Positions 21,592 to 26,774 of a stretch of DNA of 64,000 bases are shown piece after piece (position 1 is the stretch's first letter; every line of letters begins with the position of its first letter). Position numbers and translations under genes: made by a program. This stretch comes from a bacterium (GTDB lineage: Bacteria > Zixibacteria > MSB-5A5 > GN15 > FEB-12). Location: assembly GCA_043811375.1 (NCBI GenBank), contig JBDRNJ010000024.1:54869-118868 (forward strand). Reading direction: 5' to 3'. The notes below the pieces were generated by a model. The model was given only the letters and a program-made list of their open reading frames with translations, was not told the origin of the DNA and did not search any database.

Positions 21592-22152
21592 TTAGTTGGC
21601 CCGTTCCAGGTAGTTACCGGTGCGTGTGTCAACCTTGACCTTGTCGCCTTCTTTCACGAAAGGCGGTACCTTAACCATCAGACCGGTCTGCAGCTTCGCC
21701 GGTTTGGTGATGTTTGACACCGTGTCTCCACGCACCGATGGTTCAGTCTCTATCACCTCCAGTACCACCGCGGCAGGCAGATCGACCGAAATGGCTTCAT
21801 TATCCAGAAAAACGACCTTGTATTCCTCATTTTCCAGCAGATACCAGCGGGCATCACCCAGGTTCTCCGCTGGAATAGTCACCTGCTCAAACGTCTGCGT
21901 ATCCATGAAAGCCATTTCGCCGGCACTCTCATAAAGATACTGCATCGTCTTGAAATCCATGTCCGGCGGCTTGAAAGAGTCATTGGTCGAAAAGACCTTT
22001 TCAATCACGGCGCCGGTCTTGATATGTTTGAGTTTTGTGCGAATATTGGCCTTGCCGCGACCCATCTTGAAATGCTGGTAATCGATTACATAATACGGCT
22101 GGTCGTCGACAATTATGCGCAGACCCTTACGAAAATCCGATGGTGTATACAC
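21592..22152 (-). CDS. efp: Translation elongation factor P
   Basis: GTG start with AGGAGG RBS. KMGRG loop, MQYLY, GDT, VP.F and VDTR.G.Y motifs. Confidence 0.96.
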   Translation of the reverse strand: MYTPSDFRKGLRIIVDDQPYYVIDYQHFKMGRGKANIRTKLKHIKTGAVIEKVFSTNDSFKPPDMDFKTMQYLYESAGEMAFMDTQTFEQVTIPAENLGDARWYLLENEEYKVVFLDNEAISVDLPAAVVLEVIETEPSVRGDTVSNITKPAKLQTGLMVKVPPFVKEGDKVKVDTRTGNYLERAN

Positions 22153-22262
22153 TTCAACCTCCTGATCATTAGCCTGCAAATATAGCAAAAATCATGGCCA
22201 GCCCAAGAGAAATCTGACTGACTGTACGGTGGTAGCTTGAAAACGCTCCCATGCAATCGGTC

Positions 22263-22368
22263 GGGTGGCCCAGGGCTTGGAGCCTGTTGCAAAACATAAC
22301 AAACGTCATAGCGAGGAGCGAAGCGACGAGGCTATCTCGTTGTCTGGGTGGCCCAGGGCTTGCCCTGG
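22263..22368. mobile_element. Partial MITE family A copy inside a duplicated REP hairpin
   Basis: GAGCCTGTTGCAAAACATAACAAACGTCATAGCGAGGAGCGAAGCGAC... flanked by the 17-bp direct repeat GGGTGGCCCAGGGCTTG (22263-79 and 22346-62). Confidence 0.65.
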
Positions 22369-22541
22369 ATTTCTTGTCAAAACTGTAGCTGGTAAATATC
22401 CACATCTGCCGTAGATCGCAGAGCATGTGGACATACGCCGTGCACCCAAATCTGGCTGACAGTGTGATGGTTGCGTGAAAACGATCCGATGCGGTTGTTT
22501 CGCACAAGCTGGTAAGTGGTCATAATACACCGATTTTTCGC

Positions 22542-22570
22542 TTGACAACCGAGCAGCAATTCGTTAAACT
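22542..22570 (+). promoter_or_regulatory. Sigma70-type promoter for the Lnt-like / IPTL-CTERM unit
   Basis: TTGACA-N17-TAAACT, followed by the perfect palindrome AGAGAACA-T-TGTTCTCT (22582-22598). Confidence 0.55.
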
Positions 22571-22816
22571 CATTGTGACTCAGAGAACATTGTTCTCTTC
22601 GGAACGAGTCAGTACTCGCATAGGCGAGCAAGAGAAAACGCAACGGGACATACATCGACTCGCTAAGTACATGCTGAAGTCACGCTAACCGCCACAGTGT
22701 GACCGGTCTGATATTGAGGGTTCCGCCTTCGGGAAAGACCGGAATGTGGGATGTTGGGTTGGGCAGTTTATTTATCAGGACTGCCGCCCGGCGACTATAA
22801 CGACACGTAGGAGGTT

Positions 22817-23530
22817 GTGAGCCGTCGGAAGACGGCGAACAGGGTAGCAGTGGTAACGGGCCAGGAACATCGCCGACTTTATAGTGCTGTCGAGAGTTTC
22901 ATCTGTGCGGGCAGTTCCGCGCTGTTGATCTCGGCTGCCCAACTGCATCCGGAGGTCTGGTTTCTCTCCATTGTCGCCCTGGTGCCGTTTTTGGGGCGAG
23001 TCATCCGTGCCTCGCGGGCCGAATCACTCCTGTTGGGTGTAATACTGGCCACCTGCTATGCCCTGGTAGCTCGAGCCAATGATCTCTGGATAGCCCCCGG
23101 TCCCTTCCTGCTGAAATTCCTGGTGCTAAATCTCGTCTTCTGCATCTACGCCCTGGCTGTCAACCGGCTCAAGAAAACGATCGGTTTCCATGTCATTTTC
23201 GTGGCGGCACTATGGCTGCCACTGGAGTATCTGCTCGACCGTGTCGCCGGCATCGGCAGCATCTTCACGCTGGCCGCAGGTGACTCGAGCTTTGTCATCA
23301 GGATCGGCTCCCTGTTCGGGATGCTGATGATCTCGTTTGTGGTGGTGATCGCTAACTCGCTGATCGTGATCCTACTCAAAGAACTGGCCCGGGTGTTCAA
23401 ATCCGGCCGGGCACTGGTGTTTGCTGCCCCTCGTAGGAGCTTTCCAACCTTCCCACATATTCACGTCCAGCGACGCTGGTACTGTTTTCCGGATCGTCGC
23501 GCCCCGCCGCTGACCCACTCACCGGTTTAA
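22817..23530 (+). CDS. Membrane protein resembling only the N-terminal TM domain of apolipoprotein N-acyltransferase, with a C-terminal RAPP motif
   Basis: AGGAGG RBS plus GTG. 'WFLSIVALVPFL', 'AALWLPLEYL' and 'GSLFG...ISFVVV.AN' match Lnt-N. No nitrilase domain. Ends DRRAPPLTHSPV. Confidence 0.7.
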   Translation: MSRRKTANRVAVVTGQEHRRLYSAVESFICAGSSALLISAAQLHPEVWFLSIVALVPFLGRVIRASRAESLLLGVILATCYALVARANDLWIAPGPFLLKFLVLNLVFCIYALAVNRLKKTIGFHVIFVAALWLPLEYLLDRVAGIGSIFTLAAGDSSFVIRIGSLFGMLMISFVVVIANSLIVILLKELARVFKSGRALVFAAPRRSFPTFPHIHVQRRWYCFPDRRAPPLTHSPV

Positions 23531-23683
23531 CAATCGGTGTTTCTCCTGGAGAGTGATGCCCAATCGGCACACAATCTAATAAGTTGGGAACTTAAGTGTG
23601 CTCTGCTGTTCACCGCTCGTTACTATTGCGGCATACAGTAGGAAGCACAGAACGTAAGATTAAAATATTGAGGAACAAAACAA

Positions 23684-24766
23684 ATGCGTAAATTTAGTTT
23701 AGTACTATTAGCCGCCGCCCTGTTGCTGATGAGCAATGTGGCTTGGTCCCAATCACAGCAGGGCGAAAGTGATAAAGTACTCTATCACACCGTAGAGTTT
23801 ACCAATGCTACGGACAGACAAGCCATTTCTGCTCCCACCGTCGGTGGCGCCCTCGGCCCCGCAGATCCGGGACAGGTCTTGAATAGTACTGTAAACGATA
23901 ATGTCGGCCCTCCCAATCCTAAAGACAGCCGGATGGGTGGTGTCGTACATGACTACGAGAATGAGGTGGACGCGTTGGCCAATAGTGGGGATGCTTACTT
24001 CTGGCACGTGGTTAGAAACACCGCGGACCTGCTTGTCTCATTCGAATACGACCCTGTTGACCCTGCTACCGCTCGCCAACGAGCTGTCTTTCGGGAGACC
24101 CCCGCAGGATTGCGGCAGAGGATGTGGTTTCAAATCCAGCTTAGCAACGTCCCGCCCTCCCCGCCAGGTGACCCCAACTTCTTTGATTTGGATGCTCTGG
24201 AAACGTACGGTCCGACTTCCGGAGATGATGCCAACATGGCTTCGTTCAACGGCGACGCCACGACTTCCGTTTGGGACTACGGGGCGGGAGGCGCTAACAC
24301 CCCCTACATTTCAAAAGCCGATATTCTCACTGCCTTGAAGTCGGATTCGATTAGCTGGAGCGGGACCGATGACTGGGTCGACGTTGACGCCCTAATGGTA
24401 TCCAAGTATGGTGATTCGATCATTTTCAGTATCAGGGCCACAGGAAGCTTTGACGGCGGAGAGCTTATTGTGATGCCAGTAAGCAATCCTGGAGGTGCAA
24501 CCTTCCTGAAGCACGGCATCATTGCAAACCACGGCGACGGTACTACTAAGTGGAACACGGCCTTCGATCTCCAAACCGCTTTTGGTGTGGACACGGAAGA
24601 AATTGATGGCATCGAAGCCTGGAGGGGTGGCCCTCCCAACGATGCGGGGACGCCGCCACCGCCAATACCCTCCCTCACCACCTACGGTCTGATAGTCCTG
24701 CTGGCTCTGCTGCTGCTGTCAGGGATCATCGTGATCCGCAGGAGACGCGCAACCGCAACGGCATAG
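23684..24766 (+). CDS. Secreted protein with IPTL-CTERM sorting domain
   Basis: Sec signal, repeated [DE][VLI]D[AG][LI] motifs, Pro linker, then IPSLTTYGLIVL-TM-RRRR. Confidence 0.85.
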   Translation: MRKFSLVLLAAALLLMSNVAWSQSQQGESDKVLYHTVEFTNATDRQAISAPTVGGALGPADPGQVLNSTVNDNVGPPNPKDSRMGGVVHDYENEVDALANSGDAYFWHVVRNTADLLVSFEYDPVDPATARQRAVFRETPAGLRQRMWFQIQLSNVPPSPPGDPNFFDLDALETYGPTSGDDANMASFNGDATTSVWDYGAGGANTPYISKADILTALKSDSISWSGTDDWVDVDALMVSKYGDSIIFSIRATGSFDGGELIVMPVSNPGGATFLKHGIIANHGDGTTKWNTAFDLQTAFGVDTEEIDGIEAWRGGPPNDAGTPPPPIPSLTTYGLIVLLALLLLSGIIVIRRRRATATA

Positions 24767-24797
24767 TACTTTCGACCACTACTGACGCGATATTAAA

Positions 24798-24835
24798 AAA
24801 CGGGATCGAGTGAAAACTCGGTCCCGTTTCATTTG
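24798..24835. terminator. Likely bidirectional intrinsic terminator
   Basis: AAACGGGATCGAG-loop-CTCGGTCCCGTTT with A and T tracts, between convergent genes. Confidence 0.7.
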
Positions 24836-24953
24836 TGTGCATGTCTGAAGCCAGTAGTATCATCTCGCGTAGAGTGGGGGCTTGTCCCCCACAAAAAAAG
24901 TGGCTATGCCACCGGTCCCGTTTCATTTGCGATTATATCATAGGCTGGTAACG

Positions 24954-26774
24954 TCAGGCCGGTGTTGGTATCGGCTGCCGTCGATGCGGTAGCGTGATTA
25001 CAAAAGTCGTACCCTCACCCGGCTGTGACCGGACTTTCAGAGTCCCCCTGTGCATGTCGATAATCTTACGGGCCAGCGGTAATCCCAGACCGGTGCCTGA
25101 CGGTCGCGACGAATAAAACGGCGTGAATATCTTGTCCAGGTTCTCATCAGCTATGCCGCAACCCCGGTCACTAACTACAATATCCAACTCTTCGTCGCGC
25201 TGCACCAGTCGGACTTCCACCCGGCCGGGTTGGTTCTCGTACGAGTTGAGAGCATTCTCCAGTATGTTGGTCAGGGCTTGTTTGAGCAGCAGAGGATCAA
25301 CTTCAAGTGTTGTTTCAACAGTTTCTTCGATTACCAGTTCAATCCGGCTGCTTTCCGGGCGAGCCTGCAGGCCGGTAACCGTCTCGGCGATAAGTTCGTT
25401 AATAGACTGCGGCTCAGGTCTGAACGCCAGCGGCCCCGCAAACTGGAGAAACCGGTTAACCAGTTGTTCGGTCTCCGTAATCTCCCGGGTCAAAGCCGAG
25501 ATGTTGTCAGTATCCTGACCGGTCTTTTTCAATCTCTTTTTCATCAGACCGCAGTAACCGGATATGGCCCCCATCGAGTTGCGTAGTTGGTGAGCCAGAC
25601 CGGCAGCCATCTCGCCCAGCGCAGCCAGACGATTGGAGGTTTCCAATTCCGTTCGCAGCCGGCGCAGTTCTGTCAGGTCATTGATTAGCAGCGAAGCCCC
25701 AATCGGCCGACGACCTTCATCACTGATAACCGACACCGAAATGCCCAAAACCAGATTTTGCTTGTCTGCAGCCGGGTATTCGATTTCCTGATAGCCGGTT
25801 TTTTCACCGCGTGACAGAGTCTGCCGGATGGCGGCCGCCAGTTGTCCGTCAATTCCTAATGCTTTCGAATACAGTTTCCCCTGAAACTCACTGCTTTCGA
25901 CGTCAAGGATTTCACCGGCGGCGCGGTTAACCGACAGGATACGACCCTCCCGATCGATAGTAATGAGACCGGAATTCATCGATGTCAGCAGGAATTGATT
26001 GAACTGCTCCAGTGAATCAGCTTTCTTCTGAATGATCTTGTTCAGTTTCAGCAGTTCGGTTTCTTTCTCTTTCAGTTCGTCGATGATCTTCTGATAGTCA
26101 ACAACCATCGCTTCGACATCATCTTCTTCCTCGCCCACGGACCGACCGGCCGCCCGGGCCTGCTGGCGTATCTTCCGAAAAGGAGAAAAGATAAAGCGCG
26201 ACAGCAACAGGTAAATGCCGGCTATAGCCAGCGCCGAAACGGCGGCGATTATCAACGCCATCCGGGCCGAATCATCCAGATAGGCCAGGGTAGTCGAATT
26301 CTTCGACACCACCAGCAGGCTCCGCCCGGAGCCGGCAGTAATTGGTGAGACGAAAAAATATTCGTCATTGTTGCCGCGTGTCAGTGACTTATAATCTGAA
26401 GCCAGCAGTTTGCGCGCCAGATCGGGAACCTGATGGGAGGGAAGTTCACGCACGATGGCGCTAAACCATCGTCCCCGACCAACCATCGAACTGTCATGCG
26501 GCTGGGATGGAATAACCATCACACCGCTCAGAGCGTACTGGAGCCTGATCTGGCGTTGCTGGGTTTCCGTCAGGGAGAGTGGCACCGTACCCTGAACCAT
26601 CCGGGTCGCCGCGCGCGCCGCCGAACTGAGATCAGTCAGGACATCACGGCGCATTGATTCCCGCGCCCGGTAAATGATGAAATTGGAGGTCAGGTTGAGA
26701 AACAGAAGTATGCAGACGATTACCAGCAGTCCCAGGTGGACTTCCGACTCAAATCTGCGATTCCCCTTCTTCAT
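24954..26774 (-). CDS. PAS-domain sensor histidine kinase (PilS/NtrB-like)
   Basis: Two TMs, PAS, H box AHQLRN, N box ILENA, DRGCG, F.PF and GTGLGL. No cognate response regulator in the window. Confidence 0.92.
   Translation of the reverse strand: MKKGNRRFESEVHLGLLVIVCILLFLNLTSNFIIYRARESMRRDVLTDLSSAARAATRMVQGTVPLSLTETQQRQIRLQYALSGVMVIPSQPHDSSMVGRGRWFSAIVRELPSHQVPDLARKLLASDYKSLTRGNNDEYFFVSPITAGSGRSLLVVSKNSTTLAYLDDSARMALIIAAVSALAIAGIYLLLSRFIFSPFRKIRQQARAAGRSVGEEEDDVEAMVVDYQKIIDELKEKETELLKLNKIIQKKADSLEQFNQFLLTSMNSGLITIDREGRILSVNRAAGEILDVESSEFQGKLYSKALGIDGQLAAAIRQTLSRGEKTGYQEIEYPAADKQNLVLGISVSVISDEGRRPIGASLLINDLTELRRLRTELETSNRLAALGEMAAGLAHQLRNSMGAISGYCGLMKKRLKKTGQDTDNISALTREITETEQLVNRFLQFAGPLAFRPEPQSINELIAETVTGLQARPESSRIELVIEETVETTLEVDPLLLKQALTNILENALNSYENQPGRVEVRLVQRDEELDIVVSDRGCGIADENLDKIFTPFYSSRPSGTGLGLPLARKIIDMHRGTLKVRSQPGEGTTFVITLPHRRQPIPTPA

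Follow-up and report, generated by a model that had tools for sequence, protein, structure and literature searches.

Arrest peptides are known as sensors of the Sec and YidC machineries and, more recently, of metals, and two of them, ApdA and ApdP, were reportedly described by Sakiyama in 2021. Here we describe a candidate arrest leader in a 64,000-nucleotide stretch of a Zixibacteria genome (GenBank assembly GCA_043811375.1, contig JBDRNJ010000024.1), hereafter the window, in which all positions below are counted. The gene in question encodes a protein with six transmembrane (TM) helices that resembles the membrane part of Lnt, carries RAPP near its C-terminus and lies directly before a gene whose product has an exosortase-H-type sorting tail; we refer to the two as the leader and the cargo. 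The invariant RAPP-type motif, together with its place directly before an exosortase-H-tailed gene, makes the first gene a likely translation-arrest leader. We therefore favour, with a rough probability of 0.6, the reading that this six-TM, Lnt-like protein is predicted to stall its own ribosome at RAPP and likely acts in cis on the exosortase-H cargo gene.

The closest described systems are those in which small proteins, membrane-bound or secretory and encoded before diverse genes, bear RAPP or RGPP close to their C-terminus (Fujiwara 2025, EMBO J, PMC12992588). Mutagenesis of ApdA and ApdP found the arginine and the third-position proline to be irreplaceable, whereas position 2 was fully permissive for glycine and partly so for serine, aspartate and proline, and the stalled ribosome held the third motif codon in its P site (PMC12992588). 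The leader shares with this class a length below 300 aa with a localisation signal, a core few residues from the C-terminus, variable sequence N-terminal to that core, and a gene position directly 5′ of another gene on the same strand. Additionally, of the residues that occur naturally at the second motif position in the leader family, A, G, D and S permitted arrest in the published mutagenesis, while T (one case) was not named there. The leader differs from the class in that its N-terminal part is a conserved six-TM, enzyme-derived domain and not a signal peptide or single TM helix, that its target is an exosortase-H cargo, and that it is multi-copy, with one leader per cargo operon.

CruR, a DUF2946 protein of Bordetella pertussis (Roy 2022, PMC9426467), likewise combines a C-terminal RAPP with a sensing element at a fixed distance. 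There, the RAPP-stalled ribosome prevents Rho-dependent premature termination over a structured gap of 162 bp, compared with 153 nt at the leader, and in both systems translation of the downstream gene initiates independently. The signal for CruR is copper, sensed through a CXXC motif, and its target is a TonB-dependent transporter regulated via Rho, whereas the leader has no metal motif, its sensor would be the TM domain, and no locus-specific rut-like region with an excess of C over G was found at it. MifM, SecM and VemP resemble the leader in that an arrest element stands at a set distance from a membrane-targeting segment whose insertion can pull. For a TM helix oriented N-out/C-in, release upon insertion depends crucially on a spacer of set length (Fujiwara 2024, PMC10987492), and the narrow spacer of the leader resembles the YidC-type class of that paper. 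In contrast to MifM, SecM and VemP, the leader precedes a cargo gene and not a gene for Sec or YidC machinery, and no helix that sequesters a Shine-Dalgarno (SD) sequence and is opened by a stalled ribosome was found at the leader locus.

The original prediction for this locus, made from the sequence alone, held that its architecture had not been described. This needs qualification: the RAPP/RGPP leader class is published, and at least six leader/IPTL-CTERM pairs are tabulated in uORF_List_RAPP.csv of PMC12992588, unremarked in the available part of that paper. The Lnt-type and exosortase-H arrangement is not discussed there, since the main text, as far as available, mentions none of Lnt, apolipoprotein, acyltransferase, Zixi, CTERM or sorting, and IPTL-CTERM is absent from the top 30 enriched downstream classes in the part of the paper available. 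Nor does the available text of PMC10987492 mention Lnt, CTERM or exosortase, and the full-text library searched yielded almost nothing on this sorting system, with one relevant preprint mention for exosortase H (XrtH) and one paper for IPTL-CTERM. The Lnt-type sensor domain is unusual, and the exosortase-H cargo target goes undiscussed in the papers and searches consulted; the stalling core itself had already been published.

The leader family: Lnt-type membrane domain and R-x-P-P tail

The leader is a member of a family that is homologous to the Lnt membrane domain and lacks the catalytic domain. The Pfam model LNT_N (PF20154) matched it at E 4e-6, above the model cut-off of 27.1 bits, and matched 39/39 aligned relatives at E ≤ 0.01 (best 7.1e-11). 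Pfam detected no CN_hydrolase domain in the leader protein and its sequence contains no 'FPW', while the model for full-length Lnt, TIGR00546, was the sole NCBIfam match and scored 16.5 bits against a cut-off of 132.9. TM6 is followed by 51 residues, and the periplasmic nitrilase domain expected of an Lnt is missing. The catalytic triad of Lnt is Glu-Lys-Cys. Unlike Lnt, the leader has neither this triad nor the nitrilase domain nor the FPW loop, and carries a cytoplasmic arrest-type tail instead. These searches bear out the original description of a protein matching only the TM part of Lnt, without its nitrilase domain and GFPW motif.

An AlphaFold2 (AF2) model of the leader, with a predicted local distance difference test score (pLDDT) of 73, contained six TM helices, with residues 198-226 forming a disordered tail. 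In a VIA-align comparison the top 17 rows were all Lnt (Z 9.2-12.3; next unrelated row Z 8.3), with model residues 15-189 placed on Lnt residues 1-193, and the ESM Atlas gave a structure match to an Lnt cluster with a TM-score of 0.69 over residues 8-192. Foldseek returned nothing at E ≤ 0.001 for the leader model, its Lnt rows having a probability of ~0.8, and a profile search of PDB sequences with alignment A1 gave 0 matches at E ≤ 1. The six TM helices match the first six of Lnt (TIGR00546; PDB 5N6H, 8B0K and others). A W-x3-E motif in TM5 is common to the leader family and Lnt, and hhalign placed the family's WLPLEY on LWVGMEYF of the genome's own Lnt with a probability of 30%. Lysine plus arginine counts of 6/3/3/10 for the inside loops and 0/1/2 for the outside loops predict an N-in/C-in topology, and TM6 would therefore run N-out/C-in.

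A word-indexed search recovered 39 short relatives (169-284 aa). An exhaustive profile search recovered 580 short-family clusters at E ≤ 1e-3, 128 of them at E ≤ 1e-30, and the best 150 cluster representatives of the 580 were all between 111 and 291 aa long. The broader profile A3 also found genuine Lnt ORFs (open reading frames) of 467-549 aa, but these matches were weak (E 5e-13 to 9e-6) and confined to profile positions ~20-190. The relatives are thus short stand-alone proteins, and the same genome keeps a full-length Lnt (519 aa, 263 bits) elsewhere, on contig C31; the leader is not a truncated Lnt. Near-invariant residues of the membrane domain in a 63-sequence alignment are G32, S34, A35, P57, G74, W133, G168 and N180, and this conservation suggests that the domain senses or does something specific. 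A second short copy is encoded on contig C9 of the same genome (locus L022). Its tail reads ...FYLVSEIRGPPRVYSLA and ends in RGPP, and it precedes a cargo of 179-184 aa ending in LPSLTTYG, a helix and RRKR, at a distance of 39-51 nt depending on the start chosen.

The C-terminal motif is the most conserved part of the family. All of the 76 non-redundant relatives (76/76) contain R-x-P-P, as RAPP (62), RGPP (9), RDPP (3), RTPP (1) or RSPP (1), so that the motif is conserved among relatives in the way the original prediction implied. It was also found in 137 of the 150 cluster representatives (RAPP 80, RGPP 43, RSPP 11, RDPP 3); the other 13 comprise ~7 fragments that end before the tail, 4 proteins with an Arg-less xPP and 2 with other tails. 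P230 and P231 are the sole invariant columns of the 63-sequence alignment, in which mean column identity is 23%, and R228 is near-invariant. Across 42 loci the motif is written with all six arginine codons and three proline codons; because its synonymous codons vary, selection acts on the peptide.

The leader protein ends in ...RRWYCFPDRRAPPLTHSPV, followed by the stop codon TAA (23528-23530), and its RAPP lies exactly where the original prediction had placed it, at codons 23498-23509 and 6 residues from the stop. The last ~14 linker residues before the motif, which form the arrest-adjacent segment, are HVQRRWYCFPDRR in the leader. Column tallies for positions -14 to -1 give E-I-[IL]-[LF]-E-R-R-W-Y-Y-F-P-D-x, or KVYLVPEG, and the segment is conserved within subfamilies. 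After the motif there are 0-40 residues (median 6), none of them conserved. Linker and post-motif tail vary in sequence, but the distance between membrane and motif does not: from SLFG, the start of TM6, to the last proline there are exactly 66 residues in 53 of the 55 relatives scored, and from the end of the TM helix to the last proline the median is 36 (interquartile range 35-37). In the AF2 model of the leader, ~42-45 residues separate the end of TM6 (~186) from P230/P231, in agreement with the 41-44 first estimated.

The frequency expected by chance was estimated from a crude proteome of the leader's own genome (3434 ORFs, 1.10 million residues). Its composition predicts 12.2 occurrences of RAPP and 11.7 of RGPP, and it contains 5 and 2, respectively; the motif is therefore depleted in this genome and not common. 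Another ORF with a C-terminal RAPP, on contig C74, looks spurious, as opposite-strand ORFs overlap it. On contig C31 (locus L054, 3037..3468, minus strand), a 143-aa His-rich single-TM protein ending ...CRGPPKLT directly precedes genes for a TolC-like (410 aa) and an RND-adaptor-like protein (509 aa), making it a further candidate arrest leader in this genome; this pairing, with a TolC family protein and an RND adaptor, is already in the enrichment list of PMC12992588.

Cargo genes and the exosortase H system

The cargo ORF begins 153 nt past the leader and its product has a signal-peptide-like N-terminus. The C-terminus consists of a motif, a hydrophobic helix and a basic cluster, IPSLTTYG-LIVLLALLLLSGIIVI-RRRR, in keeping with the pattern of the cargo-tail alignment A2, [IV]P[TSA]L[TS]x[WY]G-TM-RRR. 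The model TIGR04174 (IPTL_CTERM) matched the tails of 8 of 15 relatives (best 3.2e-9) and left the window tail unmatched at E ≤ 10, whereas NF033207 (midcut_by_XrtH) matched 15/15 tails, the window tail at E 9e-4, below the model cut-off. The original designation of the downstream product as an IPTL-CTERM protein thus stands as to its tail pattern and not as to a match by TIGR04174. Pfam gave no match on the cargo protein. Its AF2 model (pLDDT 83) is beta-rich, and against the PDB Foldseek returned nothing at E ≤ 0.001, with weak propeller-like rows at a TM-score ≤ 0.2. Relatives of the cargo bear IPTL-CTERM (PF18203) or PEP-CTERM (PF07589) tails.

The gene that follows the leader was examined across the 42 non-redundant leader loci, in 37 of which the following ORF on that strand is complete. 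In 36/37 this gene encodes a signal-peptide protein with an IPTL-CTERM-type tail, which answers the question, raised by the original prediction, of what lies downstream of homologous leaders. A strict regular expression ([IV]P[TSA]L..G, helix and basic cluster) recognised 31/37; 5 tails are degenerate and were judged by eye (L005, L023, L036, L042, L048), and one locus, L017, has a next ORF lacking such a tail. Within the leader's own genome, 2 of 14,498 ORFs (≥ 80 aa) end in the tail pattern, each placed directly behind one of the two leader copies. The gaps between leader and cargo range from 33 to 315 nt in 41 loci, and there is an SD-like motif at every cargo gene.

Exosortase H (TIGR04177) is encoded in the same genome by a 203-aa ORF on contig C87 (93.3 bits, cut-off 86). 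The idea that an IPTL sortase must be missing was accordingly rejected, and the link to a surface protein that had been proposed for the leader holds with an addition, the connection to exosortase H, which that proposal had missed. In a sample of 151 genomes of the phylum, with XrtH called at E ≤ 1e-10, XrtH was present in 67. The short leader form occurred in 50/67 XrtH-positive and in 0/84 XrtH-negative genomes, counts whose independence is overstated because the sampled genomes are related, and for 28 of the 71 leader places an XrtH match was located no more than 8 kb away. Two genomes classed as having XrtH only were inspected, and both (2/2) had a divergent RGPP leader directly before an IPTL-CTERM gene. 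These leaders, L058 (G040:C6, 2354..3049, minus strand), ending ...PLQPRGPPLAG, and L059 (G059:C3, 1698..2498, plus strand), ending ...FFLVPHRRGPPPATSPQH, had been missed by the first profile. In G040 the genes for leader, IPTL-CTERM cargo and exosortase H follow one another in this order on one strand.

Leaders occur in up to 8 copies per genome and XrtH in 1-3, with one leader per cargo operon, and a single leader can head up to four tandem cargo genes. The latter arrangement is seen in G091:C218 (~19.4-31.7 kb), where four IPTL-CTERM genes in tandem and then the exosortase H gene stand behind a single leader; with another leader/cargo pair 5 kb away, this makes up a compact exosortase-H island. 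The XrtH-associated protein NF041730 (NCBIfam) had no match in the leader's own genome at E ≤ 0.01. On contig C11 of that genome (locus L052) an XrtA-like exosortase (288 aa) adjoins an EpsI-family protein; with XrtH also present, the genome therefore carries two exosortase systems.

Features of the locus

The features of the locus are collected in Table 1. The leader reads as 237 aa from the first GTG and as 226 aa if translation starts at the GTG at 22850, which is the start used by an 86%-identical relative (P0002). The good ribosome binding site originally ascribed to the gene is doubtful, the GGAGG at 22810-22814 standing just 2 nt from the GTG at 22817. A consensus scan reported no promoter-like site within the gap between leader and cargo (23531-23683).

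Table 1. Coordinates of the leader/cargo locus in the window, with the basis of each assignment.
Feature	Position	Strand	Basis or detail
Promoter-like site, TTGACA-17-TAAACT	22542..22570	+	consensus scan, 10/12 matches; candidate operon promoter only
Leader gene, six-TM, Lnt membrane domain only with arrest-type C-terminal tail	22817..23530	+	
LNT_N (PF20154) match, residues 34-182	22916..23362	+	27.5 bits
Last TM helix (TM6), ~residues 163-186, predicted N-out/C-in	23303..23374	+	AF2 helix 159-195 and loop charges
Cytoplasmic linker, residues 187-227	23375..23497	+	residues 198-226 modelled as disordered, pLDDT < 50
RAPP (R228-A229-P230-P231; CGC GCC CCG CCG), predicted arrest core	23498..23509	+	family conservation and published stall-site assignment
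Six-residue tail LTHSPV and TAA, unconserved	23510..23530	+	
8-bp hairpin across the stop codon, CACCGGTTTAACAATCGGTG then TTTCTCC, weakly terminator-like	23520..23539	+	
Structured intergenic gap, 153 nt, hairpins ~23547-23578 and ~23591-23657	23531..23683	+	fold z-score -1.97
SD of the cargo gene, GAGGA	23670-23674	+	
Cargo gene, 360 aa, secreted, beta-rich	23684..24766	+	
IPTL-CTERM-like sorting tail, residues 328-360	24665..24763	+	IPSLTTYG, hydrophobic helix, RRRR
Strong intrinsic-terminator-like hairpin, 14 bp then T-rich run	24798..24829	+	would close a two-gene unit

Upstream of the leader, 628 nt (22189-22816) are non-coding and contain a direct repeat, GGGTGGCCCAGGGCTTG, at ~22263 and ~22346. 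A 35-nt piece of this region (22304-22338) has 90-95% identity to high-depth RNA contigs of a groundwater metatranscriptome, and no tRNA or Rfam match was found for the gap 22189-22816. The divergent neighbouring gene (21592-22188, minus strand) appears from its translation to encode elongation factor P (EF-P). EF-P relieves polyproline stalls, and RAPP arrests have been reported to be refractory to it. Rfam gave nothing relevant over 22150-25000, and no compositional anomaly was seen around the leader/cargo operon. In a groundwater metatranscriptome run (7% of sampled words) there was a single exact contig, of 162 nt (23987-24145, depth 3.5), which lies inside the cargo gene and leaves the leader uncovered, too little for an inference on transcription or co-transcription.

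Proposed mechanism, rival explanations and meaning

From the conservation of the motif and the analogy with ApdA and ApdP, the RAPP of the leader very probably stalls the ribosome that translates it. As in ApdA and ApdP, the arrested ribosome would hold P230 in its P site and P231 in its A site. TM6, running N-out/C-in, would at this point just have cleared the exit tunnel, because ~36-45 residues separate its end from the peptidyl-transferase centre. By inserting and packing against TM1-5, it would exert a pull on the nascent chain that relieves the arrest, and the duration of the arrest would set the expression level of the downstream cargo gene. The pattern of one leader per operon leads us to infer action in cis, and it is probable, if less so than the stall itself, that the stall acts on the IPTL-CTERM cargo gene that follows. 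A route of the CruR type, in which the stalled ribosome would guard against premature transcription termination, may fit at least as well as unmasking of an SD of the SecM type, given that the gap is long and structured and that the cargo gene has an SD of its own. Candidates for what the Lnt-like domain may sense are insertion capacity, lipid or exosortase H.

The RNA was examined for traces of either route. The two hairpins of the original prediction, over the stop codon (23520-23539) and before the next gene (~23591-23657), are both present, but the function given to them did not hold up: there is no conserved counterpart and no consistent SD-masking role across loci. Specifically, none of 16 other loci folded had a conserved equivalent of the stop-codon hairpin, and minimum-free-energy folds of the leader-to-cargo RNA from 17 loci revealed no common architecture. 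Across the family, masking of the stall site changed modelled SD accessibility from 0.449 to 0.493, with changes above 0.1 upwards in 7/41 loci and downwards in 2.

Several observations count against an arrest leader acting on the cargo gene. On the RNA side, masking the stall site lowers modelled SD accessibility in the window, from 0.35 to 0.18, so that in these models SD unmasking of the SecM type appears weak, inconsistent and, in the window, opposite in direction, with no consistent RNA switch. The RxPP codons were considered as an anti-SD and rejected: their pairing in the window reaches -2.4 kcal/mol, worse than 92% of control windows, and RxPP-SD pairing falls in the top 5% in 1/41 loci and at or below -8 kcal/mol in 5/41. 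The linker showed no C>G bias of its own (skew +0.058, gene body +0.059), and the gaps are G-rich (-0.11). On the protein side, RAPP alone is insufficient for arrest and requires a suitable N-terminal neighbour (PMC12992588). Four cluster representatives keep xPP without the arginine (KDPP, LSPP twice, PDPP) and two have different tails, and the near-invariant residues of the domain exceed the needs of a mere force generator, hinting at a function of its own. Finally, besides the relatedness of the sampled genomes, 17/67 XrtH-positive genomes showed no short form, and there are cargo genes without a leader directly 5′, namely the tandem second to fourth in G091 and two on G036:C16.

Some of these points would be met by an explanation in which the Lnt-like protein is a working accessory of exosortase-H sorting, handling for example a lipid or the C-terminal helix of the cargo. 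Here, the RxPP pause would serve the protein's own biogenesis, keeping the ribosome at the translocon up to the insertion of the last TM hairpin, and the cargo gene would not be regulated. Membrane-domain residues that stay near-invariant across much diverged members would be accounted for, as would the W-x3-E motif shared with Lnt, the occurrence of the family only alongside XrtH and often adjoining it, and the lack of an RNA switch. Moreover, TM6 ends ~42-50 residues from the C-terminus, so that, if translation did not pause, its emergence would coincide with termination. However, a trans-acting factor would need a single copy, whereas these genes come one per cargo operon and outnumber XrtH, always immediately 5′ of the cargo on the same strand, which is the pattern of a cis-acting leader; the short periplasmic loops also make cargo-specific recognition hard to picture. 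We consider this explanation unlikely, if less so than the two that follow.

Alternatively, R-x-P-P could serve binding or structure in the mature cytoplasmic tail, as a docking site for a partner for instance, with no arrest involved. Proline-rich motifs often mediate protein binding, and the four representatives that keep xPP without arginine would be compatible with this. The residues at x, however, include the arrest-permissive set from mutagenesis, and the motif can form the very C-terminus (a tail of 0 residues) or precede up to 40 unconserved residues. Further, the model shows the tail as disordered, the rest of the proteome is depleted in the motif, and the TM-to-motif spacing is fixed to the residue; such a binding or structural role is thus very improbable. 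That the gene is a decayed lnt remnant with an accidental tail, an idea to which the presence of only the N-terminal Lnt domain lends itself, was rejected and can practically be dismissed, given an intact Lnt in the genome, 580 clusters of short relatives with conserved length and tail, and no nitrilase-like frame past the stop.

Returning to the arrest leader acting in cis, we tentatively offer an extension that we regard as rather doubtful as a whole: the leader may be the first monitoring substrate of the exosortase pathway. Folding or insertion of its six-helix, lipid-binding-type domain would be tied to the condition of the exosortase-H route, be it free XrtH, the lipid or acceptor of XrtH, or membrane capacity; the RAPP arrest would be released only then, and each cargo operon would possess its own mechanical checkpoint, matching synthesis to sorting while the mRNA is kept at the membrane.

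The leader joins a stalling core to a polytopic domain that is conserved and derives from a lipoprotein-modifying enzyme, and ties it to a little-described exosortase sorting system, and it indicates that published genome-wide RAPP lists still contain undescribed systems. If the stall is real, it would provide a handle on the control of exosortase cargo expression and a natural force or ligand sensor made from a six-TM domain, and the pair of leader and cargo would serve as a genomic marker for exosortase-H substrates.

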